64,000 nt of DNA, taken from NCBI RefSeq assembly GCF_024502345.1, contig NZ_JALDNN010000001.1; one strand, 5' to 3'. The translations under genes and the position numbers were made by a program. This DNA comes from Escherichia coli (GTDB lineage Bacteria > Pseudomonadota > Gammaproteobacteria > Enterobacterales > Enterobacteriaceae). Shown here one piece after another: positions 9,021 through 49,057 of the stretch. The stretch's first letter is position 1. Every line of letters starts with the position of its first letter. The notes beneath the pieces were generated by a model, which did not search any database, had not been told where the DNA came from, and saw only the letters and a program-made list of their open reading frames with translations.

Positions 9021-9093
9021 CGTGGCTACCTCGGCCAGAGAACGAAGTTGATTATTCGCAATATGGCGTACAAATACGTTGAGAAGATTCGCG

Positions 9094-9930
9094 TTATTGC
9101 AGAAAACCATCCCGTCCCTGACGAATATCACGCGGTGACCAGTTAAACTCTCGGCGAAAAAGCGTCGAAAAGTGGTTACTGTCGCTGAATCCACAGCGAT
9201 AGGCGATGTCAGTAACGCTGGCCTCGCTGTGGCGTAGCAGATGTCGGGCTTTCATCAGTCGCAGGCGATTCAGGTATCGCTGAGGCGTCAGTCCCGTTTG
9301 CTGCTTAAGCTGCCGATGTAGCGTACGCAGTGAAAGAGAAAATTGATCCGCCACGGCATCCCAATTCACCTCATCGGCAAAATGGTCCTCCAGCCAGGCC
9401 AGAAGCAAGTTGAGACGTGATGCGCTGTTTTCCAGGTTCTCCTGCAAACTGCTTTTACGCAGCAAGAGCAGTAATTGCATAAACAAGATCTCGCGACTGG
9501 CGGTCGAGGGTAAATCATTTACCCCTTCCTGCTGTTCCATCTGTGCAACCAGCTGTCGCACCTGCTGCAATACGCTGTGGTTAACGCGCCAGTGGGAAGG
9601 ATACTGTCCGTCCTGCTCTTGTGGCAGCAACTGATTCAGCCCGGCGAGAAACTGAAATCGATCCGGCGAGCGATACAGCACATTAGTCAGACACAGATTA
9701 TCGGTATGTTCATACAGATGCCGATCATGGTCGCGCACAAAACAGACCGTGCCACCGGTGATGGTATAGGGCTGCCCATTAAACACATGAATACCCGTGC
9801 CATGTTCGACAATCACAATTTCATGAAAATCATGATGATGTTCAGGAAAATCCGCCTGCGGGAGCCGGGGTTCTATCGCCACGGACGCGTTACCAGACGG
9901 AAAAAAATCCACACTATGTAATACGGTCAT
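9094..9930 (-). CDS. rhaS: AraC-family activator RhaS, 278 aa
   Basis: [44 protein letters not shown]..., cupin + HTH. Confidence 0.95.
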
Positions 9931-14395: not shown

Positions 14396-15811
14396 TCAGA
14401 AGAAGTATTTAAAGCGAACGCGTGCGCCGTAACGGTCATCAGTATCATCACCGTGTTTTTTATCACCGTCGCTATCCAGAATGGAGTAATACGTCCCGAG
14501 GTAAATATTAAAGTTCTCCATATCCATCACATTAGCGAACTGATAAGACGCATGAATGGTGTGAATGGAGTACGTCCCTTCATCATCAATCCAGCAGTCG
14601 TTATCACAAACTACACCGCTGAATTCATCAATCTTATTGTGCGCGTAGATATAACCGAGCTCGAAACGTTTCCACAGCGCGTTAATCCCGGCAGTGAAAT
14701 CTTTCTCATTATTAGCATCTAAATAGGCGGTATTAAGATTAACCACAATGCCATTGTCCGGATCCGTTTTCAGGCCGTTCCAGGTCATGCTCATCCCATA
14801 GCCGGTACGATCGGACTGATCGACAAAATTACCCTTGCTATCGGTATAACCATAAGCATTATTTACCACGTTCGCTTCCATCGCTGCGGAAACGGTGAAT
14901 TCTTCCGTCGGCGACCAGGCAATTACTGGGCGCAGATAAGCAACATTTTTCTGCTGCTCCATATCGCGTCCATGATAATTACCGTCATTATATAAAGATG
15001 TTCCGTCTTCAAGTAACGTGTTTAATTCAAAATACCAGTTATCGAGTTGTTTGCTGACGAGGAAATTACCGCCAGCGTTAGAGCGCCCGCGGCCCTCTTT
15101 CATCATATAGATATAACCGCTGCCATCGTCATAAAGATCGTTCGCAGTATTACCGGAATGTTCAACAAAGGTATCCTGATTCAGCGGGAACATATCGTAG
15201 GCTTCAAAACGGCCTACTTTGACCTTCCAGTCGTTTTCTTTGCCAAAGAAGAATACCGCATCATCGATATTTACTGAACCGTGCATATCACCCAGCGGTT
15301 GTGCGGAGAACCCGGAGAAATAACCGTTGTCCATCTTTCGCATACCGTCAAAACCTAACAGAATACGACCATTGAGATTCCACTGTTCATTAGTGGGATC
15401 GCTATTCACATCAGCGTTGGTCATTGCCAGCAGGCCATGATTACTTTCCGCATCCATATTAAATTCTACGTCGCCGTAGATTTTTAAATCGCCATAACCT
15501 GAAAGCAAAAGATTAGGTGAGGTGGCATTTTTCTTTGCAGATTCCGCCGTTGCCTGTCCATTTACCGGCGTATTGCCCTGAGCGGCCTTAATTTCGCGGA
15601 TCTCAGCGGCTTGTTGTGTCTGCAGCTGTTTAACCTGGCTCTCTGCTTTTGCCGCCCGCATTTCTGCCGCTTCCAGGCGTTCTTCCAGCAATGCCATGCG
15701 TTGTTCCAGCAATGCCATGCGTTGTTCCAGCGTTAAATGCTGTGTTTTTGCCATACCGGTACTACATGCCAATAATAAACCGATGGCTAAAGATAATGTC
15801 GATTTTTTCAT
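14396..15811 (-). CDS. Putative outer-membrane sugar porin (ScrY/OprB-like beta-barrel) with signal peptide and N-terminal coiled-coil extension, 471 aa
   Basis: N-terminus MKKSTLSLAIGLLLACSTGMA (signal peptide), then heptad-rich LEQRMALLEQRMALLEERLEAAEMRAAKAESQVKQLQ, then Y/G/N/D-rich alternating segments and C-terminal ...RVRFKYFF typical of OM beta-barrels; SD aggga 9 nt upstream of ATG. Family assignment is from sequence features only. Confidence 0.7.
   Translation of the reverse strand: MKKSTLSLAIGLLLACSTGMAKTQHLTLEQRMALLEQRMALLEERLEAAEMRAAKAESQVKQLQTQQAAEIREIKAAQGNTPVNGQATAESAKKNATSPNLLLSGYGDLKIYGDVEFNMDAESNHGLLAMTNADVNSDPTNEQWNLNGRILLGFDGMRKMDNGYFSGFSAQPLGDMHGSVNIDDAVFFFGKENDWKVKVGRFEAYDMFPLNQDTFVEHSGNTANDLYDDGSGYIYMMKEGRGRSNAGGNFLVSKQLDNWYFELNTLLEDGTSLYNDGNYHGRDMEQQKNVAYLRPVIAWSPTEEFTVSAAMEANVVNNAYGYTDSKGNFVDQSDRTGYGMSMTWNGLKTDPDNGIVVNLNTAYLDANNEKDFTAGINALWKRFELGYIYAHNKIDEFSGVVCDNDCWIDDEGTYSIHTIHASYQFANVMDMENFNIYLGTYYSILDSDGDKKHGDDTDDRYGARVRFKYFF
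15685..15726 (-). repeat. Perfect 21-bp tandem duplication inside the porin coiled-coil region (encodes LEQRMAL twice)
   Basis: ccagcaatgccatgcgttgtt occurs twice consecutively (15685-15705 and 15706-15726), in frame. Confidence 0.9.
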
Positions 15812-30427: not shown

Positions 30428-30718
30428 CTAACGGTTAAGTGCTTGCAGCACATGTTGCGGATCATTGGCAATCGCTCGCAGCAAAGCCTTTGCAGGCCCG
30501 GTCGGTGAACGTCGCCCCTGCTCCCAGTTACGCAACGTGTCTACGCTTACAGAAATAAGATCGGCAAATTTAGATTGTGACAACCCTGAAGCGCGGCGTA
30601 TTTCTTTGATTTTCATAGCATCAACTTCAAAAGTCCGCGAAGGCTGTCGCGTTCCTTCAATAATTTCATTCATCTGGGCCATGCTGTGAGTCAACCGCTC
30701 AAAAAGTGCCTTATCCAT
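30428..30718 (-). CDS. XRE-family helix-turn-helix antitoxin (HigA/NadS-like), 96 aa
   Basis: ORF MDKALFERLTHSMAQMNEIIEGTRQPSRTFEVDAMKIKEIRRASGLSQSKFADLISVSVDTLRNWEQGRR...; HTH motif; ATG immediately abuts the stop of the upstream toxin-like ORF. Confidence 0.75.
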   Translation of the reverse strand: MDKALFERLTHSMAQMNEIIEGTRQPSRTFEVDAMKIKEIRRASGLSQSKFADLISVSVDTLRNWEQGRRSPTGPAKALLRAIANDPQHVLQALNR

Positions 30719-31030
30719 TTACCACCTCGTATTTAACAACCGGAGCATTGCTTTTCCCAGGGGAGACAGATCATCTTTAATACCCTTACGATAAATAAGC
30801 AGTAATCTGATCTCATAATGTTTAACCTGATGAAAGTAAATAACCCTGACACCAGCACGTTTCCCCTTTCCTCCTGACACCCATCGAACCTTTCTTAACC
30901 CACCAGTTTCAGGTATTACCTCACCATAGTCAGGATTCAAGGCTAGGAAAAACTGAAAACGACGGAATTCATCGTCGTTCAGCAGTTTTTGAACATCTTC
31001 AGTAAAAATTTCCGTTTCGATGAAGGGTAT
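30719..31030 (-). CDS. RelE/HigB-superfamily toxin-like gene (DUF1044 addiction-module killer type) lacking a canonical start codon; possibly inactive
   Basis: Frame open from stop at 31073-31075 down to 30719: ...IVIPFIETEIFTEDVQKLLNDDEFRRFQFFLALNPDYGEVIPETGGLRKVRWVSGGKGKRAGVRVIYFHQVKHYEIRLLLIYRKGIKDDLSPLGKAMLRLLNTRW. No ATG/GTG upstream of the TTG at 30940; the position where a start is expected from the family's typical N-terminus (M-x-FIET) is ATA (31028-31030). Confidence 0.55.
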   Translation of the reverse strand: MPFIETEIFTEDVQKLLNDDEFRRFQFFLALNPDYGEVIPETGGLRKVRWVSGGKGKRAGVRVIYFHQVKHYEIRLLLIYRKGIKDDLSPLGKAMLRLLNTRW

Positions 31031-31171: not shown

Positions 31172-31246
31172 TTTTCCACATCCGTGAATTTCCCTGTATC
31201 CATCCAGCAGAAACGAGTGTATAAAACTGTACATTCATACAGCAAG

Positions 31247-32167
31247 ATGAGTTCTACTATGGCACTGGAAAAAGGAATTGCAGAGTTAGTCGAAGAGTTT
31301 ATCGCTGCGGGTCGCCCCTCATCGCGTCAACAAAGTATTGCACAGCGCAGGGAGGGCTATATCGCCAGCGCTGTCCTTGCGGGTGAGACAGAAACGCGGG
31401 TAGATATTCAGACTATCGAACTTGAAGGGATGACCTTACGAATAGTGTCACCGCTGAATGCCCCGACATTACTCCCGACGATAATTTATTACTACGGTGG
31501 CTGTTTTGTTAGCGGCGGGTTCGCAACTCACGACAACCAGCTGCGCCAGTTAGCCTATTACGGGCAATGTCGTGTTATTGCCGTCCAGTATCGGCTGGCA
31601 CCGGAACATACTTTCCCCGCCGCCCATGATGATGCGCAACGAGGTGCAGAATTAGTCTTGCAACACGCCGAACGACTTGGCGTTGATAAACAGCGGATAA
31701 CTCTTGCCGGTGACAGTGCGGGCGGACATCTGGCGCTGGTAACTGCTTTGCGATTAAAGCGTGCTGGCGAGTGGCAACCTGCACAACTCATATTAATTTA
31801 TCCCATGCTTGATGCGACTGCGCATTTCGAAAGCTATATCCGCAATGGTCACGATTACATCATCACACGCGATACTCTACTGAGCGGCTTTGAGATGTAC
31901 CTACCAGATATTGATCGCAAGCATCCTGAAGCCAGTCCTCTATGGCGAGATGATTTTAATGGCTTGCCGCCTGTACATATCATTACCGCTGAATACGACC
32001 CACTTTGCGATGAAGGTGAAGCGTTGTATCACCGCATGACCGAGCAAGGAGTGCAATGTACCTGCCAACGCTACCCTGGCGTTATCCACGGATTTTTTCA
32101 GTTAGGTGGTATCAGCGAGGCCGCGCGATCGGCACTACGGGATGTTGCCTGGAGAGCGGGAAGGTAA
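31247..32167 (+). CDS. Alpha/beta-hydrolase, family IV (HSL/Aes-like) esterase, about 307 aa
   Basis: ORF 31184..32167; oxyanion-hole region YYYGGCF, nucleophile elbow GDSAGG, DPLCDEG and C-terminal HGFF catalytic-His motif. Start chosen at first ATG (31247); GTG at 31184 also possible. Confidence 0.75.
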   Translation: MSSTMALEKGIAELVEEFIAAGRPSSRQQSIAQRREGYIASAVLAGETETRVDIQTIELEGMTLRIVSPLNAPTLLPTIIYYYGGCFVSGGFATHDNQLRQLAYYGQCRVIAVQYRLAPEHTFPAAHDDAQRGAELVLQHAERLGVDKQRITLAGDSAGGHLALVTALRLKRAGEWQPAQLILIYPMLDATAHFESYIRNGHDYIITRDTLLSGFEMYLPDIDRKHPEASPLWRDDFNGLPPVHIITAEYDPLCDEGEALYHRMTEQGVQCTCQRYPGVIHGFFQLGGISEAARSALRDVAWRAGR

Positions 32168-35116: not shown

Positions 35117-35226
35117 TTTTGCCTCCTTTCGCGCCACAAGAAATTAACTGTAGCGGGAAAGGATGGGTTTGGCTATGTGGCAAGGTATGAAGCCAGGTCA
35201 ACGGTCACAAAAATCTACGCGTCTTC

Positions 35227-36000
35227 CTAGGGAAGAATGATTTCAATTTGGCTGTCTTGTAAGCGTGATTTTAGCGCAGCGGGCGGCAGCTCGTCGGTGA
35301 AGAGCGCGGTGACCTGTGCCACGTTACCAATTTCAACCGCCGCCGAAGCATGATACTTAGTGTGATCGGCGACCAGCAGGATATTTCTCGCGTGCGCCAT
35401 CATCGTTTTCACCACGTTAGCTTCGTTTACATCAAACTCCATCAACGCGCCATCGCTCTCGATTGCGCCTACGCTTGTTACCAGATAATCAGCACGAAAA
35501 TCGGCCACAAAGGACGCCGCTGAAGGGCCAATGATCCCGCTATTATGAGAGCGCAACGTACCGCCGGGCACCATCACTTCAAAGCGCGGGTTGTGGTAAA
35601 GAATATGCGCCACACGCAGGCTGTTGGTGATTATCCGCAAATGATTATGGTTAAGTAACGCCCGGGCGACATGCTCAACGGTCGTACCAATGGTGATAAA
35701 TATTGTTGAACCATCAGGAATATAGTCTGCCACCGCTTCGGCAATCGCTTTTTTTTCCTCGGTTTGCGAAACCTCACGCTGCTCGAACGCCGTATTAACG
35801 ACGCTGGAAGCCCGACCCGCGCCACCGTGATGGCGCGTAATCAGGCCTTGCTCGCTTAATTTACGAATATCCCGGCGCACCGTCTGCGTGGAGACATCCA
35901 GCAGATTTGCCAGCTCATCAATATTCATATACCCACGCTCGGCGATCAGCATGAGGAGTTGGTCGTGCCGCGGGTTACCGGTTAGTTCGGTAAGGCTCAT
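35227..36000 (-). CDS. yihW: DeoR-family repressor of the sulfoquinovose cluster (CsqR/YihW), about 257 aa
   Basis: ORF 35227..36024; start placed at internal Met MSLTELTGNPRHDQLLMLIAERGYMNIDELANLL by recollection of the K-12 protein. Confidence 0.8.
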   Translation of the reverse strand: MSLTELTGNPRHDQLLMLIAERGYMNIDELANLLDVSTQTVRRDIRKLSEQGLITRHHGGAGRASSVVNTAFEQREVSQTEEKKAIAEAVADYIPDGSTIFITIGTTVEHVARALLNHNHLRIITNSLRVAHILYHNPRFEVMVPGGTLRSHNSGIIGPSAASFVADFRADYLVTSVGAIESDGALMEFDVNEANVVKTMMAHARNILLVADHTKYHASAAVEIGNVAQVTALFTDELPPAALKSRLQDSQIEIILP

Positions 36001-36033: not shown

Positions 36034-36930
36034 TTATACAAAAAGTGACAAAAAAGATCGGGTTTGATCACAGTCAGGGATCCCGGCTCGTCCACCGGGA
36101 CGCGTGCATTTCAACGCCGCTACACCGCTGGCGAAGCGGACTGACTCCGCTAAATCCCCACCTGTTGCCAGCGCCACCGCCAATGCGCCGTGAAAAACAT
36201 CACCCGCACCTGTGGTATCTACCACATCAACTTTGAAGGCCGGTTGATGTTGACGCCCGCCATTTTCCAGCCAGTCACAGCCTGCGCTGCCCTGGGTCAC
36301 ATAGACATGACCATTTGTGAGCGTTTGTGCCTGTTTTAGCGCACTGGCCATCTCTTTCACACCCGTTAAGCGCGCCAGACCCGGTTCTGAAAAGGCCGCA
36401 TGATCGCTTAATGCCACCAGCTCGCTGATATCCTGCGGCGTAATATCACCGTCCAGAACGGTCATCACGCCCGCCTGCCGGGCCAGAGTGAAGGCTTTTT
36501 TAGCGCCGTCGTGCCAGCGTACATCTGCCAGCACAACATCCCACTGAGAGAAATCAATTTCCTCCAACCACTCTGCGTCAGGCAGCAGGTCCGGGCTGGG
36601 GTAGTTAATGATTATCCGCTCGCCTGTGGCATCCACCATGATGGCGGATTGCGATGATTTCGCCTGGTTATACCGTTTGGTGTAACGGGTGTTAACGCCC
36701 CAGGATTCCAGCTCTGCCAGCAGGCTGTTGCCCGTGTCGTCATCACCTACGCGACCCATAAAATCAACCTGCGCCCCCAGCCTTGCCGCCGCAACCGCTG
36801 CCGTCGCCGCTGGCCCGCCACCAACTTCCGTATAATTTCTCGCCACGTATTTACCGCTCTCCGTCGGTAACCCTTCCACGTAATAGATGCGATCCATCAC
36901 GGTTATACCTACACAAGCAACACGAATCAT
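36034..36930 (-). CDS. yihV: Sulfofructose kinase (PfkB family), 298 aa
   Basis: ORF 36034..36936; MIRVACVGITVMDRIYYVEGLPTESGKYVA..., ribokinase-like GAGD motif. Confidence 0.85.
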   Translation of the reverse strand: MIRVACVGITVMDRIYYVEGLPTESGKYVARNYTEVGGGPAATAAVAAARLGAQVDFMGRVGDDDTGNSLLAELESWGVNTRYTKRYNQAKSSQSAIMVDATGERIIINYPSPDLLPDAEWLEEIDFSQWDVVLADVRWHDGAKKAFTLARQAGVMTVLDGDITPQDISELVALSDHAAFSEPGLARLTGVKEMASALKQAQTLTNGHVYVTQGSAGCDWLENGGRQHQPAFKVDVVDTTGAGDVFHGALAVALATGGDLAESVRFASGVAALKCTRPGGRAGIPDCDQTRSFLSLFV

Positions 36931-37097
36931 GGTCATTCCTTAAACATTTTGGGATGCGTTCATTTTAATTTCACCAATTGTTTAAAAAGTGACGGCTGTC
37001 AATTTTTTGACTATAAATTACAAATACGATCAAAAACAGACAATCAAAGCGTGTCATAAATGACAAAAAGTGACATCGCTGTATTCAGGAGAAGGTT

Positions 37098-37994
37098 ATG
37101 GCAGCAATCGCGTTTATCGGTTTAGGACAAATGGGTTCGCCAATGGCGAGCAATTTATTGCAGCAAGGGCACCAACTTCGCGTCTTTGATGTGAATGCCG
37201 AGGCTGTGCGGCATCTGGTAGACAAAGGCGCGACTCCCGCCGCCAACCCGGCGCAGGCCGCTAAAGATGCCGAATTTATCATTACCATGTTGCCGAATGG
37301 CGATCTGGTGCGCAGCGTGTTGTTCGGTGAGAACGGCGTTTGCGAAAGCTTATCTACCGATGCGCTGGTCATTGATATGTCGACCATCCATCCGCTGCAA
37401 ACCGATAAATTGATTGCCGATATGCAAGCCAAAGGCTTCAGCATGATGGATGTTCCGGTAGGCCGTACTTCTGCAAATGCCATTACCGGTACTCTGTTAC
37501 TGCTGGCTGGCGGCACCGCTGAACAAGTTGAACGTGCCACGCCGATCCTGATGGCGATGGGCAGTGAGTTGATCAACGCTGGCGGTCCGGGCATGGGGAT
37601 CCGCGTTAAGCTCATCAACAACTATATGAGCATCGCACTCAATGCGCTTTCGGCAGAAGCTGCCGTTTTGTGCGAAGCCCTGAATCTTCCCTTCGATGTT
37701 GCCGTCAAAGTGATGAGCGGTACCGCCGCCGGTAAAGGCCACTTCACCACTTCCTGGCCAAACAAAGTCCTCAGCGGAGATCTTTCTCCCGCCTTCATGA
37801 TCGATCTTGCCCATAAGGATCTTGGCATCGCCCTTGATGTCGCCAACCAGCTGCATGTGCCAATGCCGCTGGGGGCCGCCTCACGGGAGGTTTATAGCCA
37901 GGCGCGCGCAGCGGGTCGCGGTCGCCAGGACTGGTCCGCCATTCTGGAACAGGTCCGTGTCAGTGCCGGGATGACTGCCAAAGTAAAAATGTAA
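37098..37994 (+). CDS. yihU: 3-sulfolactaldehyde reductase, 298 aa
   Basis: [40 protein letters not shown]..., NAD-binding GLGxMG. Confidence 0.9.
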
Positions 37995-38017
37995 CGACTG
38001 GATAAAGGAATAAATGA

Positions 38018-38896
38018 ATGAATAAGTACACCATCAACGACATTACGCGCGCATCGGGCGGTTTTGCCATGCTGGCGGTCGATCAGCGCGAAGCCATGCG
38101 CATGATGTTTGCCGCGGCTGGGGCACCCGCTCCGGTAGCCGATAGCGTTTTAACTGATTTCAAAGTTAACGCGGCGAAGACCCTCTCGCCTTATGCCTCG
38201 GCGATTCTGGTAGATCAACAATTCTGTTACCGCCAGGTGGTTGAGCAAAACGCGATTGCCAAAAGTTGCGCCATGATTGTCGCCGCCGATGAGTTCATTC
38301 CTGGCAACGGTATTCCGGTAGATAGCGTGGTCATTGACCGCAAAATCAATCCGCTACAGATCAAACAAGACGGTGGCAAAGCCTTAAAACTGCTGGTGCT
38401 GTGGCGTAGTGATGAAGATGCGCAGCAACGCCTGGATATGGTGAAAGAGTTTAACGAACTGTGCCACTCACACGGCCTGGTAAGCATTATTGAGCCAGTC
38501 GTCCGCCCACCACGTCGTGGCGATAAATTCGATCGCGAACAAGCGATCATCGATGCCGCCAAAGAGCTGGGCGACAGTGGCGCTGACCTCTACAAAGTTG
38601 AAATGCCGCTTTACGGTAAAGGTCCGCAACAAGAGCTTCTCAGTGCTTCACAACGTCTGAATAACCATATCAATATGCCGTGGGTGATCCTCTCTTCCGG
38701 TGTCGACGAAAAACTGTTCCCGCGTGCCGTACGCGTGGCAATGACAGCGGGTGCATCGGGCTTCCTGGCTGGTCGTGCCGTCTGGGCATCGGTCGTCGGT
38801 TTACCAGACAACGAGTTGATGCTGCGTGACGTTTGTGCACCGAAATTACAACAACTGGGCGATATCGTCGACGAAATGATGGCTAAACGCCGTTAA
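38018..38896 (+). CDS. yihT: Sulfofructose-phosphate aldolase, 292 aa
   Basis: [34 protein letters not shown]... Confidence 0.9.
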
Positions 38897-38911
38897 GATG
38901 GGGATACAAAA

Positions 38912-40153
38912 ATGAAATGGTTTAACACTTTAAGTCACAACCGTTGGCTGGAACAGGAAACCGATCGCATCTTTGATTTTGGTAAAAATTCCGTAGTACC
39001 GACCGGATTTGGCTGGTTAGGCAATAAAGGGCAAATCAAAGAAGAGATGGGCACCCATCTGTGGATCACAGCTCGTATGTTGCACGTTTATTCCGTTGCT
39101 GCGGCGATGGGTCGACCTGGCGCTTACTCGTTGGTTGATCACGGTATTAAAGCCATGAACGGCGCACTGCGCGATAAAAAATATGGCGGCTGGTATGCCT
39201 GTGTGAATGACGAGGGCGTGGTGGATGCCTCCAAACAGGGCTATCAACATTTCTTTGCTCTGCTGGGTGCTGCCAGCGCCGTCACTACCGGTCATCCGGA
39301 AGCGCGCAAGCTGCTCGATTACACCATTGAAATTATCGAGAAATACTTCTGGAGCGAAGAAGAGCAGATGTGCCTGGAGTCCTGGGACGAAGCCTTCAGC
39401 AAAACCGAAGAGTACCGCGGCGGCAATGCCAATATGCACGCAGTGGAAGCTTTCTTAATTGTTTATGACGTAACGCATGACAAAAAATGGCTGGATCGCG
39501 CGATTCGCGTGGCTTCCGTGATTATCCACGACGTCGCAAGAAATAATCATTATCGCGTTAACGAACACTTCGATACCCAGTGGAATCCGCTGCCGGATTA
39601 CAACAAAGATAACCCGGCGCACCGCTTCCGCGCGTTCGGAGGTACACCAGGCCACTGGATCGAATGGGGCCGTTTAATGCTGCACATCCACGCGGCCCTG
39701 GAAGCCCGTTGCGAACAACCGCCAGCATGGTTGCTAGAAGATGCCAAAGGTCTGTTTAACGCCACCGTGCGTGATGCCTGGGCACCCGATGGTGCGGACG
39801 GGATTGTTTATACCGTTGACTGGGAAGGAAAACCGGTGGTCCGCGAACGTGTGCGTTGGCCTATCGTCGAAGCGATAGGTACGGCCTACGCGCTCTACAC
39901 CGTCACCGGCGATCGCCAGTATGAAACCTGGTATCAGACATGGTGGGACTACTGCATTAAGTACCTGATGGACTATGAAAATGGTTCCTGGTGGCAGGAG
40001 CTGGATGCGGACAATAAAGTCACCACGAAAGTCTGGGACGGCAAACAGGATATTTATCACCTGCTGCATTGCCTGGTGATCCCGCGTATCCCGTTAGCGC
40101 CAGGCCTGGCTCCGGCAGTTGCGGCGGGTCTGCTGGATATTAACGCGAAATAA
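38912..40153 (+). CDS. yihS: Sulfoquinovose isomerase (AGE-family epimerase/isomerase), 413 aa
   Basis: [43 protein letters not shown]... Confidence 0.9.
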
Positions 40154-40333
40154 CTGACTAAAAAAAAACGACATATCAGGCTGCACGCCGGGTATGTCGT
40201 TATTCAATAAAGGTACCTCGTATGCAAATCACCAACATGCATTGCAGTGGACAGACCGTTTCACTTGCCGCGGGGGATTATCACGCGACCATTGTGACCG
40301 TCGGTGCAGGTCTGGCTGAATTAACCTTTCAGG

Positions 40334-41554
40334 TGTAGATTCAATTGGTCAACGCAACAGTTATGTGAAAACATGGGGTTGCGGAGGTTTTTTGAATGAG
40401 ACGAACATTTACAGCAGAGGAAAAAGCCTCTGTTTTTGAACTATGGAAGAACGGAACAGGCTTCAGTGAAATAGCGAATATCCTGGGTTCAAAACCCGGA
40501 ACGATCTTCACTATGTTAAGGGATACTGGCGGCATAAAACCCCATGAGCGTAAGCGGGCTGTAGCTCACCTGACACTGTCTGAGCGCGAGGAGATACGAG
40601 CTGGTTTGTCAGCCAAAATGAGCATTCGTGCGATAGCTACTGCGCTGAATCGCAGTCCTTCGACGATCTCACGTGAAGTTCAGCGTAATCGGGGCAGACG
40701 CTATTACAAAGCTGTTGATGCTAATAACCGAGCCAACAGAATGGCGAAAAGGCCAAAACCGTGCTTACTGGATCAAAATTTACCATTGCGAAAGCTTGTT
40801 CTGGAAAAGCTGGAGATGAAATGGTCTCCAGAGCAAATATCAGGATGGTTAAGGCGAACAAAACCACGTCAAAAAACGCTGCGAATATCACCTGAGACAA
40901 TTTATAAAACGCTGTACTTTCGTAGCCGTGAAGCGCTACACCACCTGAATATACAGCATCTGCGACGGTCGCATAGCCTTCGCCATGGCAGGCGTCATAC
41001 CCGCAAAGGCGAAAGAGGTACGATTAACATAGTGAACGGAACACCAATTCACGAACGTTCCCGAAATATCGATAACAGACGCTCTCTGGGGCATTGGGAG
41101 GGCGATTTAGTCTCAGGTACAAAAAACTCTCATATAGCCACACTTGTAGACCGAAAATCACGTTATACGATCATCCTTAGACTCAGGGGCAAAGATTCTG
41201 TCTCAGTAAATCAGGCTCTTACCGACAAATTCCTGAGTTTACCGTCAGAACTCAGAAAATCACTGACATGGGACAGAGGAATGGAACTGGCCAGACATCT
41301 AGAATTTACTGTCAGCACCGGCGTTAAAGTTTACTTCTGCGATCCTCAGAGTCCTTGGCAGCGGGGAACAAATGAGAACACAAATGGGCTAATTCGGCAG
41401 TACTTTCCTAAAAAGACATGTCTTGCCCAATATACTCAACATGAACTAGATCTGGTTGCTGCTCAGCTAAACAACAGACCGAGAAAGACACTGAAGTTCA
41501 AAACACCGAAAGAGATAATTGAAAGGGGTGTTGCATTGACAGATTGAATCTACA
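40334..41554 (+). mobile_element. IS30 insertion sequence, 1221 bp, with 2-bp target-site duplication GG
   Basis: Terminal inverted repeats tgtagattcaattggtcaacgcaacag (left) and gtgttgcattgacagattgaatctaca (right); GG at 40332-40333 and 41555-41556; contains 383-aa transposase ORF. Confidence 0.92.
40396..41547 (+). CDS. insI: IS30 transposase, 383 aa
   Basis: ORF MRRTFTAEEKASVFELWKNGTGFSEIANILGSKPGTIFTMLRDTGGIKPHERKRAV...; DDE motif region HWEGDLV. Confidence 0.9.
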   Translation: MRRTFTAEEKASVFELWKNGTGFSEIANILGSKPGTIFTMLRDTGGIKPHERKRAVAHLTLSEREEIRAGLSAKMSIRAIATALNRSPSTISREVQRNRGRRYYKAVDANNRANRMAKRPKPCLLDQNLPLRKLVLEKLEMKWSPEQISGWLRRTKPRQKTLRISPETIYKTLYFRSREALHHLNIQHLRRSHSLRHGRRHTRKGERGTINIVNGTPIHERSRNIDNRRSLGHWEGDLVSGTKNSHIATLVDRKSRYTIILRLRGKDSVSVNQALTDKFLSLPSELRKSLTWDRGMELARHLEFTVSTGVKVYFCDPQSPWQRGTNENTNGLIRQYFPKKTCLAQYTQHELDLVAAQLNNRPRKTLKFKTPKEIIERGVALTD

Positions 41555-42407
41555 GGGCTGTCATTTAGTTATTCCACATAAACCCGAAGAGATGCCGCTG
41601 GCACATCTGGGCAAAGTCCTTATTCCGTGGCCGAACCGGATCGCCAACGGCTGTTATCGCTATCAGGGGCAGGAATATCAGTTACCCATTAATGAACATG
41701 GTTCAAAAGCCGCTATTCATGGGCTGCTCGCCTGGCGTGACTGGCAAATCAGCGAATTAACCGCCACCAGCGTTACCCTGACAGCTTTTCTGCCACCCAG
41801 TTACGGCTATCCGTTTATGCTGGCTTCGCAGGTTGTTTATTCGCTCAATGCACGCACGGGTCTTTCCGTTGAGATCGCAAGTCAGAATATTGGTACTGTG
41901 ACCGCACCCTATGGTGTGGGTATTCATCCTTATTTAACCTGCAACTTAACATCTGTTGATGAATATCTGTTCCAGCTTCCGGCAAACCAGGTTTATGCCG
42001 TCGATGAGCACGCTAATCCGACAACGCTTCACCACGTTGATGAGCTGGATTTAAATTTCACGCAGGCGAAAAAAATAGCCGCGACAAAAATCGACCACAC
42101 CTTTAAAACCGCTAATGATCTGTGGGAAATAACCATTACCCATCCACAACAGGCGCTTTCGGTAAGCCTTTGTTCCGATCAACCCTGGGTGCAGATTTAT
42201 AGCGGCGAAAAATTACAGCGTCAGGGACTGGCAGTTGAACCTATGAGTTGCCCACCTAACGCCTTTAATTCAGGTCTCGACTTATTATTACTGGAACCAG
42301 GGAAAACGCACCGCCTGTTTTTTAATATTTACGGGCAGCACAATTAATTTTATTAAGAAAAGAACGAGATCATTGTTTAGGGTTGTATTTACACAACAGG
42401 AAATATC

Positions 42408-43283
42408 ATGGACTTTTTTACGTTATTTTCACCGGATGGGGTCATGCTGGAAACAAACGTGGTATGTATCGTTATCGCGTTAATGTTTCTTTATACCTTT
42501 GTGGGGATATGCGCGGGATTTGGCGGTGGTTTAACCACCATGCCGCTCGTCACGTTAATGCTCCCCGTAAAAATGGCAACTCCGCTCTCGGTGATTGTCG
42601 GCACCGCGACCGCCTTGTACGCCACCTGGCTGTCACGTAAAGAAACGGATTGGCGATCGGCAATGGTACTGATTATTTTCTCGTTTCTGGGAATACCCGT
42701 CGGTTTATATGCGCTGTCATATTTACCCGACCATTTTATGAAAGTGGGCTTAGGCGGATTCCTTATCCTGTACTCCTTTTACAGTATGTTTATTCCACGC
42801 CTGCCGATTTATGACCGCAACTGGATCGCCGCACCTATCGGCGCTGTGGCAGGAGCGTTAGGGGCAGCGTTTTCAACCAACGGACCGCCGATGGTTATCT
42901 ACGGTATGCTGCGTAACTTAGGCCCGGCGGCATTTCGTGGCACTCTGAACGCTTTCTTCACCGCAAACAACATCGCGGTGATCGGCGGGCTGGCGACCAG
43001 CGGAATTTTGACTGTTTCTATCTTTAAACTGGTGCTGTTTTGTATTCCCACCATGATCCTCGGTTCACTGGTTGGACAATATGTGCATAAACGCATTTCA
43101 GTCAAAGTGTTCCGTGTGATGGTCTTTTTGTTGCTGATTGCCTCCGGTTCTATGTTGATAAAAGGCGCGCTGGGAATTCCCGCTGCTGCCGCGCTTCTGC
43201 CTCCTTTTACCTTGTTAGTTATACTGCAACTGGCATTTGGTAAAAAAGTGGCGGCAATCCGCCGGGCTGAAGAAAGTAAATAA
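42408..43283 (+). CDS. TauE/SafE-family (DUF81) membrane permease, putative sulfite/sulfonate exporter, 291 aa
   Basis: ORF MDFFTLFSPDGVMLETNVVCIVIALMFLYTFVGICAGFGGGLTTMPLV...; multiple TM segments with the glycine-rich motif (AGFGGG..P) typical of TauE/SafE proteins; SD aggaaa before ATG. Confidence 0.7.
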   Translation: MDFFTLFSPDGVMLETNVVCIVIALMFLYTFVGICAGFGGGLTTMPLVTLMLPVKMATPLSVIVGTATALYATWLSRKETDWRSAMVLIIFSFLGIPVGLYALSYLPDHFMKVGLGGFLILYSFYSMFIPRLPIYDRNWIAAPIGAVAGALGAAFSTNGPPMVIYGMLRNLGPAAFRGTLNAFFTANNIAVIGGLATSGILTVSIFKLVLFCIPTMILGSLVGQYVHKRISVKVFRVMVFLLLIASGSMLIKGALGIPAAAALLPPFTLLVILQLAFGKKVAAIRRAEESK

Positions 43284-43391: not shown

Positions 43392-45424
43392 ATGGATACG
43401 CCACGCCCACAATTACCAGATTTTCAGTTTCATCAGAATAACGACAGTTTTACCCTACATTTTCAACAGCGTCTTATTTTAACCCATAGCAAAGATAATC
43501 CTTGTTTATGGATTGGTTCAGGTATTGCGGATATCGATATGTTCCGCGGCAATTTCAGCATTAAAGATAAACTACAGGAGAAAATTGCGCTTACCGACGC
43601 CATCGTCAGCCAGTCGCCGGATGGTTGGTTAATCCATTTCAGCCGTGGTTCTGACATTAGCGCCACGCTGAATATCTCTGCCGACGATCAGGGCCGTTTA
43701 TTGCTGGAACTACAAAACGACAACCTTAACCACAACCGTATCTGGCTGCGCCTTGCCGCTCAACCAGAGGACCATATCTACGGCTGCGGCGAACAGTTTT
43801 CCTACTTCGATCTGCGTGGCAAACCGTTCCCGCTATGGACCAGTGAACAAGGCGTTGGTCGCAATAAACAAACCTATGTCACCTGGCAGGCCGACTGCAA
43901 AGAAAATGCGGGCGGCGACTATTACTGGACTTTCTTCCCACAGCCTACGTTTGTCAGCACGCAGAAGTATTACTGCCATGTTGATAACAGTTGCTATATG
44001 AACTTCGACTTTAGTGCCCCGGAATACCATGAACTGGCGCTGTGGGAAGACAAAGCAACGCTGCGTTTTGAATGTGCTGACACATACATCTCCCTGCTGG
44101 AAAAATTAACCGCCCTGCTGGGACGCCAGCCAGAACTGCCCGACTGGATTTATGACGGAGTAACGCTCGGCATTCAGGGCGGGACGGAAGTGTGCCAGAA
44201 GAAACTGGACACCATGCGTAACGCGGGCGTGAAGGTCAACGGCATCTGGGCGCAGGACTGGTCCGGTATTCGTATGACCTCTTTTGGCAAACGCGTGATG
44301 TGGAACTGGAAGTGGAACAGCGAAAACTACCCGCAACTGGATTCGCGTATCAAGCAGTGGAACAAAGAGGGCGTGCAGTTCCTTGCCTATATCAACCCGT
44401 ATGTTGCCAGTGATAAAGATCTCTGCGAAGAGGCGGCAAAGCGCGGTTATCTGGCAAAAGATGTCGCCGGTGGCGACTATCTGGTGGAGTTTGGCGAGTT
44501 CTACGGCGGCGTTGTCGATCTCACCAATCCGGAAGCCTACGCCTGGTTCAAGGAAGTTATCAAAAAGAACATGATTGAACTCGGCTGCGGCGGCTGGATG
44601 GCTGACTTCGGCGAGTATCTGCCCACCGACACGTACCTGCATAACGGCATCAGCGCGGAAATTATGCATAACGCCTGGCCCGCGCTGTGGGCGAAATGTA
44701 ACTACGAAGCCTTGAAGAAACGGGCAAGCTCGGCGAGATCCTCTTCTTTATGCGCGCCGGTTCTACCGGTAGCCAGAAATACTCCACCATGATGTGGGCG
44801 GGTGACCAGAACGTGGACTGGAGTCTGGACGATGGCCTGGCGTCGGTTGTCCCGGCGGCGCTATCTCTGGCAATGACCGGACATGGCCTGCATCACAGCG
44901 ACATTGGCGGTTATACCACCCTGTTTGAGATGAAGCGCAGCAAAGAGCTGCTGCGCTGGTGCGATTTCAGCGCCTTCACGCCGATGATGCGCACCCACGA
45001 AGGTAACCGTCCTGGCGACAACTGGCAGTTTGACGGCGACGCGGAAACCATCGCCCATTTCGCCCGTATGACCACCGTCTTCACCACCCTGAAACCTTAC
45101 CTGAAAGAGGCCGTCGCGCTGAATGCGAAGTCCGGCCTGCCGGTTATGCGCCCGCTGTTCCTGCATTACGAAGACGACGCGCAGACCTATTCCCTGAAAT
45201 ATCAGTACCTGTTAGGTCGCGACATTCTGATTGCTCCGGTACACGAAGAAGGTCGCAGCGACTGGACGCTCTATCTGCCAGAGGATAACTGGGTCCACGC
45301 CTGGACCGGAGAAACCTTCCACGGTGGAGAAATAACTGTTGAAGCGCCCATCGGCAAGCCGCCGGTCTTTTATCGCGCCGACAGCGAATGGGCTGCACTG
45401 TTCGCCTCGTTAAAAAACATCTAA
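43392..45424 (+). pseudogene. yihQ: GH31 sulfoquinovosidase yihQ carrying a 1-bp frameshift near 44714
   Basis: ORF 43392..44792 (466 aa) and out-of-frame ORF 44750..45424 (224 aa) together cover one ~678-aa GH31 protein; reading cttgaagaaacg as cttgGaagaaacg restores a single frame (...NYEALEETGKLGEILFFMRAGSTGSQ...). Confidence 0.75.
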
Positions 45425-45469: not shown

Positions 45470-46855
45470 ATGAGTCACATCACAACGGAAGATCCGGCAA
45501 CTTTGCGCCTGCCCTTTAAAGAGAAACTCTCTTACGGTATCGGCGATCTGGCCTCTAACATCCTGCTGGATATTGGTACGCTTTATCTTTTGAAGTTTTA
45601 TACCGACGTTCTGGGGCTACCTGGCACCTATGGCGGCATTATCTTTTTGATCTCGAAATTCTTTACCGCCTTTACCGATATGGGAACCGGCATCATGTTG
45701 GATTCCCGGCGTAAGATTGGCCCGAAAGGTAAGTTCCGCCCTTTCATTTTGTACGCGTCATTCCCGGTCACCTTATTGGCAATCGCTAACTTTATCGGCA
45801 CACCGTTCGATGTCACTGGTAAAACGGTGATGGCCACTATTCTATTTATGCTCTACGGGCTGTTTTTCAGCATGATGAACTGCTCCTACGGCGCAATGGT
45901 TCCCGCCATTACCAAAAACCCCAACGAACGCGCATCGCTGGCGGCATGGCGTCAGGGTGGTGCTACATTGGGCCTGCTGCTGTGTACGGTGGGATTCGTG
46001 CCGGTGATGAACCTTATCGAAGGTAATCCGCAACTGAGCTACGTTTTCGCCGCCACGCTATTTTCACTGTTCGGCCTGCTGTTTATGTGGATCTGCTACT
46101 CGGGCGTGAAAGAGCGTTATGTCGAAACCCAACCTGCTAATCAGGCGCAAAAGCCAGGCTTGCTGCAATCTTTCCGCGCAATTGCCGGTAACCGCCCACT
46201 GTTCATTCTGTGTATTGCCAACCTCTGCACCTTAGGGGCGTTTAACGTCAAGCTCGCCATTCAGGTCTATTACACCCAGTACGTGCTTAACGATCCCATC
46301 CTGTTGTCGTATATGGGATTTTTTAGCATGGGCTGTATTTTCATCGGCGTGTTCCTGATGCCTGGCGCAGTTAGACGTTTTGGTAAGAAGAAGGTCTATA
46401 TCGGCGGCCTGCTGATTTGGGTGCTTGGCGATCTGCTCAACTATTTCTTCGGCGGCGGCTCGGTCAGTTTTGTGGCGTTCTCCTGCCTGGCATTCTTTGG
46501 CTCGGCGTTTGTTAACAGCCTGAACTGGGCGCTGGTTTCCGACACCGTCGAGTACGGCGAGTGGCGCACCGGTGTCCGTTCTGAAGGGACGGTCTACACC
46601 GGCTTCACCTTCTTTCGCAAAGTGTCTCAGGCGCTGGCTGGTTTCTTCCCCGGCTGGATGCTGACGCAAATCGGCTATGTGCCGAACGTGGCGCAGGCTG
46701 ACCACACCATTGAAGGGTTGCGCCAGCTGATCTTCATCTACCCAAGCGCACTGGCGGTAGTCACCATTGTGGCGATGGGTTGCTTCTACAGTCTGAACGA
46801 GAAGATGTACGTCCGCATTGTTGAAGAAATAGAAGCCCGTAAACGCACGGCGTAA
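45470..46855 (+). CDS. yihP: GPH-family (sugar:cation symporter) transporter, 461 aa
   Basis: ORF 45437..46855; start MSHITTEDPATLRLPFKEKLSYGIGDLASN with SD aatggaga. Confidence 0.85.
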   Translation: MSHITTEDPATLRLPFKEKLSYGIGDLASNILLDIGTLYLLKFYTDVLGLPGTYGGIIFLISKFFTAFTDMGTGIMLDSRRKIGPKGKFRPFILYASFPVTLLAIANFIGTPFDVTGKTVMATILFMLYGLFFSMMNCSYGAMVPAITKNPNERASLAAWRQGGATLGLLLCTVGFVPVMNLIEGNPQLSYVFAATLFSLFGLLFMWICYSGVKERYVETQPANQAQKPGLLQSFRAIAGNRPLFILCIANLCTLGAFNVKLAIQVYYTQYVLNDPILLSYMGFFSMGCIFIGVFLMPGAVRRFGKKKVYIGGLLIWVLGDLLNYFFGGGSVSFVAFSCLAFFGSAFVNSLNWALVSDTVEYGEWRTGVRSEGTVYTGFTFFRKVSQALAGFFPGWMLTQIGYVPNVAQADHTIEGLRQLIFIYPSALAVVTIVAMGCFYSLNEKMYVRIVEEIEARKRTA

Positions 46856-46894
46856 TAATAAACGACGCCCTGCGGGGCGTTATAAGGAGTGATT

Positions 46895-48298
46895 ATGTCT
46901 GACCATAATCCACTGACATTAAAACTGAATCTGCGGGAAAAAATCGCCTATGGTATGGGCGACGTTGGTTCGAATTTAATGCTTAGCATCGGTACTCTGT
47001 ATCTCCTCAAATTTTATACCGATGAATTAGGGATGCCAGCTTACTATGGCGGGATTATCTTTCTGGTGGCGAAGTTTTTTACCGCGTTTACCGATATGCT
47101 CACCGGATTTTTACTCGACTCGCGGAAAAATATTGGGCCTAAAGGCAAATTTCGTCCCTTTATTTTATATGCAGCGGTTCCGGCGGCGTTAATTGCAACG
47201 CTCCAGTTTATCGCCACCACTTTTAGTTTGCCGGTTAAAACGACGATTGCCACGGCGCTGTTTATGATGTTTGGGCTTTCATACAGTCTGATGAACTGCT
47301 CGTATGGCGCGATGATCCCGGCAATTACCAAAAACCCGAATGAGCGCGCGCAGCTCGCTGCTTACCGCCAGGGTGGTGCAACCATAGGGCTATTGATTTG
47401 TACCGTGGCGTTTATTCCGTTGCAGTCGCTTTTTTCTGACTCAACCGTCGGTTATGCCTGTGCGGCACTTATGTTCTCCATTGGCGGCTTTATTTTTATG
47501 ATGCTGTGCTACAGAGGCGTCAAAGAGCATTATGTGGACACAGCGCCAACCGGACATAAAGCCAGTATTCTCAAATCATTTTGCGCGATATTTCGGAATC
47601 CGCCATTGCTGGTTTTATGCATTGCTAACTTGTGTACCCTGGCGGCATTTAATATCAAACTGGCGATTCAGGTCTATTACACCCAGTATGTGCTGCATGA
47701 TATTAATTTATTGTCGTGGATGGGATTCTTCAGTATGGGATGCATCCTCATCGGCGTATTACTGGTGCCATTAACTGTAAAATGTTTTGGTAAAAAACAG
47801 GTTTATTTAGCTGGCATGGTGCTATGGGCGGTTGGTGATATCCTGAATTATTTCTGGGGAAGTAACTCTTTCACTTTCGTCATGTTCTCTTGTGTCGCCT
47901 TTTTTGGCACGGCCTTTGTAAACAGCCTGAACTGGGCGCTGGTACCAGATACCGTAGATTACGGTGAATGGAAAACCGGTATTCGTGCCGAAGGTTCTGT
48001 TTATACCGGTTATACCTTCTTTCGTAAAATTTCTGCCGCACTTGCTGGCTTCTTGCCAGGCATTATGCTGACGCAAATCGGTTATGTTCCCAACATCGCG
48101 CAAAGTGATGCGACATTACAGGGTTTGCGTCAGCTCATTTTTATCTGGCCTTGTGCACTGGCAATTATTGCTGCATTGACGATGGGATTCTTTTACACAC
48201 TCAATGAAAAACGGTTTGCGTTGATTATTGAGGAAATCAACCAACGCAAAAATAAAGAAATTGAGACAGAAGAAAAAACGGCTTCCGTAACGTTATAA
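46895..48298 (+). CDS. yihO: GPH-family sulfoquinovose transporter, 467 aa (paralog of yihP)
   Basis: ORF 46889..48298; start MSDHNPLTLKLNLREKIAYGMGDVGSNLML with SD aaggag 5 nt upstream. Confidence 0.85.
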   Translation: MSDHNPLTLKLNLREKIAYGMGDVGSNLMLSIGTLYLLKFYTDELGMPAYYGGIIFLVAKFFTAFTDMLTGFLLDSRKNIGPKGKFRPFILYAAVPAALIATLQFIATTFSLPVKTTIATALFMMFGLSYSLMNCSYGAMIPAITKNPNERAQLAAYRQGGATIGLLICTVAFIPLQSLFSDSTVGYACAALMFSIGGFIFMMLCYRGVKEHYVDTAPTGHKASILKSFCAIFRNPPLLVLCIANLCTLAAFNIKLAIQVYYTQYVLHDINLLSWMGFFSMGCILIGVLLVPLTVKCFGKKQVYLAGMVLWAVGDILNYFWGSNSFTFVMFSCVAFFGTAFVNSLNWALVPDTVDYGEWKTGIRAEGSVYTGYTFFRKISAALAGFLPGIMLTQIGYVPNIAQSDATLQGLRQLIFIWPCALAIIAALTMGFFYTLNEKRFALIIEEINQRKNKEIETEEKTASVTL

Positions 48299-48364
48299 AT
48301 GTCAATAGCCGCTATTTCCATCCTGGTGGGTGGCGGCCTCCCTACGTTTAAAAATGGACTTATT

Positions 48365-49057
48365 ATGAAAAATATTAATGCAATAATTTTATTATCTTCT
48401 CTGACCTCTGCCTCAGTATTCGCTGGCGCATACGTCGAAAACAGGGAGGCATATAATCTCGCCTCCGATCAGGGCGAGGTTATGCTACGTGTGGGTTATA
48501 ACTTCGATATGGGCGCGGGTATTATGTTAACCAATACCTACACCTTTCAGCGAGAAGATGAACTAAAACATGGATATAACGAAATCGAAGGTTGGTATCC
48601 GTTATTTAAACCAACCGATAAATTAACCATCCAGCCCGGTGGCTTAATTAATGATAAGAGTATCGGTTCGGGTGGTGCAGTGTATCTGGACGTCAACTAT
48701 AAATTTGTACCATGGTTTAATCTGACAGTACGAAATCGCTATAACCATAATAACTATAGTTCAACAGATTTGAGCGGGGAACTGGATAATAATGACACCT
48801 ATGAAATTGGTACCTACTGGAATTTTAAAATCACCGATAAGTTCTCCTATACATTTGAGCCACATTATTTTATACGCGTAAATGACTTTAATAGCAGCAA
48901 TGGAAAAGATCATCACTGGGAAATCACTAACACCTTCCGTTATCGCATTAATGAACACTGGCTGCCTTATTTCGAATTACGCTGGTTAGATCGTAATGTC
49001 GAACCGTACCACCGCGAGCAAAACCAGATTCGTATCGGGACGAAGTATTTCTTCTGA
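48365..49057 (+). CDS. ompL: Outer-membrane porin OmpL, 230 aa
   Basis: Internal Met MKNINAIILLSSLTSASVFAGAY... of ORF 48299..49057; ends ...IRIGTKYFF. Confidence 0.85.
   Translation: MKNINAIILLSSLTSASVFAGAYVENREAYNLASDQGEVMLRVGYNFDMGAGIMLTNTYTFQREDELKHGYNEIEGWYPLFKPTDKLTIQPGGLINDKSIGSGGAVYLDVNYKFVPWFNLTVRNRYNHNNYSSTDLSGELDNNDTYEIGTYWNFKITDKFSYTFEPHYFIRVNDFNSSNGKDHHWEITNTFRYRINEHWLPYFELRWLDRNVEPYHREQNQIRIGTKYFF

Follow-up and report, generated by a model that had tools for sequence, protein, structure and literature searches.

YihQ releases α-sulfoquinovose from sulfoquinovosyl glycerol, and YihR converts it to the β anomer, which is used by YihS; the uncatalysed conversion of the sulfoquinovose anomers has a half-life of ~300 min (PMC9594981). 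The yih cassette has been described as a labile module that occurs in a long form and in a short form (yihTUVW) lacking yihQ, yihR and yihS (PMC12608037). In our survey, yihQ was present in 3,909 of 5,426 complete E. coli genomes, a figure consistent with the published lability of the cassette. YihQ of E. coli K-12 belongs to family GH31 and is represented by PDB entries 5AED, 5AEE and 5AEG.

Here we analyse the yihQ allele found in a 64-kb stretch of E. coli DNA (hereafter the window), which spans the region from fieF to polA. The closest described counterpart is the K-12 enzyme, whose gene lies in the same yih cassette. With one C added, the window gene is colinear with and nearly identical to that of K-12, and Q288, R301, W304, D405, D472 and Y508 are all encoded. 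The differences are a frame that breaks after codon 441, the loss of one Leu from the KELLLRW motif, and the replacement of a Val by Ile. [quoted passage not shown] However, yihO, yihP, yihQ, yihR and yihS are absent altogether from the short cassette, whereas the window holds the long form, damaged by one point deletion and by IS30, with yihS, yihO, yihP and ompL intact. The third counterpart comprises other E. coli yihQ pseudogenes, in which the same gene is inactivated within otherwise intact long cassettes. Their lesions are nonsense mutations at codon 429 (contigs L013, L017 and L019) or codon 433 (L014), a 1-bp deletion at nt 1222 (L018), a rearrangement after nt 1279 (L015), and an IS1 insertion (strain 1506). 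The window allele is one more instance of this known pattern of yihQ loss. A literature search on yihQ as a pseudogene found no description of the window allele itself.

Table 1. Features of the yih region and of the insertions relative to E. coli L73, in window coordinates.
Feature	Position	Strand	Description
Insertion relative to L73	14356–16156		1.8 kb; rhaM-frvA interval
Carbohydrate porin gene (public-record name)	14396–15811	-	471 aa; in the 1.8-kb insertion; variant on ~30 contigs
Insertion relative to L73	30220–32231		2 kb; yiiE-fabY interval
NadS/HTH antitoxin-like ORF	30428–30718	-	in the 2-kb insertion
73-aa ORF	30719–30940	-	adjoins the NadS/HTH ORF; may be its toxin partner
Alpha/beta-hydrolase gene	31184–32167	+	327 aa; resembles the hormone-sensitive-lipase/acetyl-esterase families, below their cut-offs
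csqR (yihW), repressor gene	35215–36000	-	Q258*, codon 35227–35229; last 4 residues lost
yihV (-), yihU, yihT, yihS (+)	36034–40153	-/+	core sulfo-EMP enzymes; all intact
yihR (sulfoquinovose mutarotase), 5' fragment	40222–40333	+	first 112 nt; 100% identical to L73
IS30	40334–41554	+	1221 bp; intact 383-aa transposase at 40396–41547
yihR, 3' fragment	41555–42347	+	100% identical to L73
TauE/SafE-family membrane protein gene	42408–43283	+	291 aa; intact; between yihR and yihQ
yihQ, 5' ORF	43392–44792	+	466 aa; 441 native codons, 25 out-of-frame codons (KKRASSARSSSLCAPVLPVARNTPP), TGA
Frameshift site	44710–44711	+	CC remaining of ancestral CCC; codons 440/441
yihQ, 3' ORF	44750–45424	+	224 aa; -1 frame; native residues 454–678 minus one Leu
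Second deletion, in-frame, 3 bp	44947–44953	+	(GCT)3 to (GCT)2; KELLLRW to KELLRW
SNP	45230	+	G to A, Val to Ile; in window-like contigs, not in L73 or L004
yihP, yihO, ompL	45470–49057	+	intact in the window

The frameshift in yihQ

The lesion was defined by aligning positions 43392–45424 with the intact yihQ of E. coli L73 (contig L001, 6001–8037). The two sequences, of 2033 and 2037 nt, respectively, differ in three places in total, namely a C lost from CCC, a GCT lost from (GCT)3, and the SNP at 45230. The ancestral-type sequence GAAGCCCTTGAAG was found in yihQ of both L73 and K-12, and the gene of K-12 MG1655 contains GCCCTTGAAG as well as the KELLLRW motif. Since CCC is read in both K-12 and L73, we take it as the ancestral state. 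Restoring one C to the window gene yields a single ORF of 677 codons; the intact ORF in L73 and K-12 encodes 678 aa. The initial annotation had proposed to repair the frame with a single G, which produces the same amino acids (A-L-E-E-T) in one frame, but the missing base is a C of the CCC run. Alignment to intact yihQ thus bore out the one-base loss, and it also revealed the 3-bp deletion and the Val-to-Ile SNP, which had been overlooked.

The 466-aa and 224-aa ORFs lie in different frames and overlap by 43 nt. The YihQ equivalog of NCBIfam, NF007746/PRK10426 (score cut-off 553), matched the 466-aa ORF over positions 3–446 of 683 (E = 1.8e-232, 773.5 bits) and the 224-aa ORF over profile positions 455–680 (E = 2.9e-127, 425.8 bits). 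Matches of both ORFs to one equivalog at complementary positions are not a matter of chance, and the initial assignment of the two out-of-frame ORFs to one GH31 YihQ therefore stands. Moreover, in precomputed Pfam hits the catalytic domain of GH31 (PF01055) is split across the two products.

Consequence for the YihQ protein

The intact YihQ relative is colinear with the E. coli YihQ of PDB entry 5AED over residues 1–678. We used the residue roles given in a preprint (bioRxiv 10.64898/2026.02.11.705467), which itself cites Speciale et al. 2016. The 466-aa ORF encodes Q288, R301, W304 and the nucleophile D405. The acid/base residue D472 and Tyr508 are encoded by the 224-aa ORF, in the other frame. 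Hence, D405 and D472 are not on one polypeptide in the window allele. The residues of sulfonate recognition, R301, W304 and Y508, are likewise all encoded, with Y508 past the frameshift.

The change from CCC to CC at codons 440/441 would shift the frame such that translation gives 441 correct residues, then 25 wrong ones, and a stop. The predicted truncated YihQ would keep D405 and lack D472, Y508 and the C-terminal domain, and a product without these elements should be unable to hydrolyse sulfoquinovosyl glycerol. The 3' frame does not open until 44702, i.e., 8 nt ahead of the deletion site, and its earliest possible ORF start is the ATG at 44750, which corresponds to Met454; no Shine-Dalgarno sequence was found upstream of this ATG. 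Judged by the GH31 mechanism, neither fragment is predicted to be a complete retaining glycosidase.

In terms of phenotype, we predict that the strain would fail to grow on sulfoquinovosyl glycerol and other sulfoquinovosides, and that its use of free sulfoquinovose would be slower or impaired by polarity; YihS, YihV, YihT and YihU, as well as the transporters, are still encoded. We must also note that these predictions are drawn from the 64-kb window and that a second sulfoquinovosidase may be encoded elsewhere in the genome.

Distribution and origin of the allele

The exact 466-aa product was found in 49 index blocks and on at least 24 contigs, which come from ENA metagenome, NCBI isolate (GCA_014329185.1) and Logan assemblies. 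A cluster look-up placed the 466-aa product on 23 contigs and the 224-aa product on 38. Among the nine loci listed, six (L002, L003, L005, L006, L007 and L010) are 99.96–99.97% identical to the window, and in every one of them the loss of the C is accompanied by the 3-bp deletion and the SNP. Four of these six window-like contigs start inside the right end of IS30. Each differs from the window by 1–5 private SNPs over 5–13 kb, which indicates a diversified clone and not a single isolate sequenced repeatedly. We consider yihQ of the window to be, very probably, a genuine and vertically inherited loss-of-function frameshift allele in one E. coli clone. The initial annotation had left open whether the gene was a pseudogene, and the recurrence of the exact truncated product on at least 23–24 independent contigs settles the matter in favour of a pseudogene.

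The isolate contig L004 matches L73 at 99.98% identity over 8.9 kb, the C deletion and one SNP being the sole differences. The changes are therefore nested, with L004 equal to the L73 allele plus the C deletion, and with the 3-bp deletion and the SNP at 45230 added in the window-like contigs. This nesting suggests that the frameshift came first and that the gene was already dead when the other changes accumulated; its 3' part would have drifted afterwards through the 3-bp deletion and the Val-to-Ile change. L004 carries IS1 sequence at both ends (1–110 and 9035–9144), which places IS1 insertions just after yihR (~42360 in window coordinates) and in yihM (~51282). It thus represents a different, IS1-rich strain background for the C-deletion allele.

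Two further contigs bear on the order and number of events. L009 has the yihQ lesions without IS30, and its yihR belongs to another haplotype, marked by 12 SNPs across about 450 nt. This Logan assembly may be chimeric or mixed; L009 was left out of the ordering, and the relative timing of IS30 and the frameshift is accordingly not firm. In L008, the C deletion lies on a third haplotype, the nearest flanking SNPs of which, at 44558 and 45043, are only 485 bp apart. With a coverage of 4.4x, this metagenome contig may also be chimeric. With the C deletion on both the L004 and the L008 haplotypes, a single origin requires recombination; otherwise the mutation is recurrent.

The surroundings of the gene are informative in this respect. 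Apart from the lesions, the block formed by yihR, the TauE/SafE-family gene (tauE) and yihQ is 100% L73-like, whereas yihP is 95% identical to L73 and the other flanking genes 97–99.7%. An L73-like block amid diverged neighbours fits import by recombination. On a finer scale, yihP (45470–46855) is 95.2% identical to L73, whereas identity is 99.6% or higher in its neighbours yihQ and yihO; by this pattern, yihP itself looks like a recombination tract.

The presence of the deletion on three haplotypes (the window type, the L73-identical L004, and L008) could also mean that inactivation was adaptive and recurrent, with loss of YihQ selected in some gut niches and the change from CCC to CC arising repeatedly. 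The several other independent yihQ lesions point the same way, as does the reported enrichment of the short cassette without yihQRS in pathogenic strains (PMC12608037). Nevertheless, a run of three Cs is not hypermutable, the allele is rare, and one of the three haplotypes is that of the possibly chimeric L008. The L73-like yihR-tauE-yihQ block, the neighbours of which are 1–5% off L73, fits recombinational import, and neutral decay of an unused pathway accounts for the data equally well. We regard adaptive recurrence of this very deletion as a very improbable explanation. The broader proposal is one of convergent adaptive inactivation instead of neutral decay, with sulfoquinovosidase loss repeatedly selected in some E. 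coli niches and point mutations doing what the short yih cassette does by gene absence; it is very improbable as well. The break in yihQ is ordinary decay, fixed in a clone, within a cassette known to be labile.

Authenticity of the frameshift

An error of sequencing or assembly, with CCC and an intact yihQ in the true genome, was considered because the change sits in a short homopolymer and because none of the 3,599 complete RefSeq E. coli genomes that matched the 91-bp stretch 44670–44760 did so at 100%. The best matches listed for this stretch have one extra base relative to the window, which restores the single ORF, and no match to the allele was found among GTDB species representatives either. 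However, the identical truncated product occurs on the contigs described above, which belong to unrelated assemblies that differ in assembler and in underlying data, and the window-like contigs, being a few SNPs off the window, represent other isolates. The rest of the window is also clean. In a comparison of ~55 window genes with their L73 counterparts, damage was confined to yihQ, yihR and csqR, about 50 others were intact, and no indel was found in any other gene. Damage limited to these three genes indicates that the assembly is not of low quality; for contrast, the error-rich assembly L016 looks quite different, with many fragmented genes. Given the exact product on many independent contigs and the clean remainder of the window, we rejected sequencing error, an option that had been raised initially, and we assign it a nearly negligible probability.

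Programmed -1 recoding within the 44702–44792 overlap, or assembly of the two fragments into an active sulfoquinovosidase, is hardly credible, even though the ORFs overlap by the 43 nt noted above and the 3' frame opens shortly before the deletion site: a search of positions 44690–44792 in all frames turned up no X XXY YYZ heptamer, and the overlap lacks homopolymers of four or more bases; the RNA of 44712–44810 folds no better than shuffled sequences (minimum free energy of -25.8 kcal/mol versus a shuffle mean of -28.8, z = +0.88); the ATG at 44750 lacks a Shine-Dalgarno sequence; all 3,599 complete genomes that matched the stretch differ from the window allele; the two-ORF layout is not conserved, the homologues examined being single ORFs; the 3' part has since acquired an indel and a missense change; and a break at 441/454 would delete residues 442–453 of PF01055. 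For want of a slippery site, homopolymer, Shine-Dalgarno sequence or stimulatory RNA structure at the overlap, both the programmed frameshift, which the initial annotation had mentioned as an option, and the split enzyme were rejected.

IS30 in yihR

The element in yihR is the sole IS within the window. Its terminal inverted repeats match at 23 of 26 positions, the target duplication is a 2-bp GG (40332–40333 and 41555–41556), and the transposase scores 276 bits against NF033563 (cut-off 80). All features by which an IS30 insertion is recognised, i.e., a transposase of the family, a length of ~1.2 kb, inverted repeats, and a duplication of 2–3 bp, are present, which confirms the initial identification of an IS30 within yihR. 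The junction between IS30 and yihR was found in no complete E. coli genome. In our model, IS30 would have interrupted yihR at nt 112, later than or separately from the frameshift.

We also observed a TTGACA hexamer at 41538–41543, facing outward, 11 nt from the right terminus of IS30. It could serve as the -35 box of transcription toward the 3' fragment of yihR and the genes downstream. The candidate -10 element beside it, TGTCAT, is weak, and a promoter scan did not report the site.

Rest of the cassette and of the window

The early stop in the repressor gene csqR, a further change that the initial annotation did not contain, results from a G-to-A substitution at 35229 on the + strand. A 101-bp stretch of csqR had an exact match in no complete RefSeq genome. 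The 257-aa csqR product is present on 214 public contigs, compared with 23 and 38 for the truncated yihQ products.

K-12 has only a 198-nt spacer at the position of the TauE/SafE-family gene. Of the 5,426 complete genomes of E. coli, 1,295 have this gene, which corresponds to roughly one in three of the yihQ carriers; it is outside the published gene list of the long cassette. Its product might be a putative sulfonate exporter.

The cassette is still decaying in some members of the clone. L003, L005 and L009 have a T inserted in yihP after 45998 (GTG to GTTG), which splits the transporter gene.

The two non-IS insertions relative to L73 (Table 1) are ordinary accessory genes. A Shigella origin, suggested by the lack of a matching complete E. 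coli genome and by the IS1 ends of L004, was rejected for the window, since its lineage-specific proteins all carry the E. coli name in public records and IS30 is the one IS in 64 kb. The internal TGA of fdoG, also within the window, is the normal selenocysteine codon.

Implications

The initial annotation had suggested, from the frameshift together with the IS30, that the entry steps for sulfoquinovose glycosides are being lost. As far as can be predicted from sequence, this view is supported, and it fits both the yihP frameshift in some relatives and the reported lability of the cassette (PMC12608037). The yihQ of the window should be annotated as a pseudogene, and the strain should be predicted to be unable to free sulfoquinovose from sulfoquinovosyl glycerol. 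Beyond annotation, the finding matters little. It is relevant when sulfoquinovose degradation by gut E. coli is inferred from the presence of yihQ in metagenomes, and, as a case of point mutation, it is a small addition to the published view of the yih cassette as an evolutionarily labile module.
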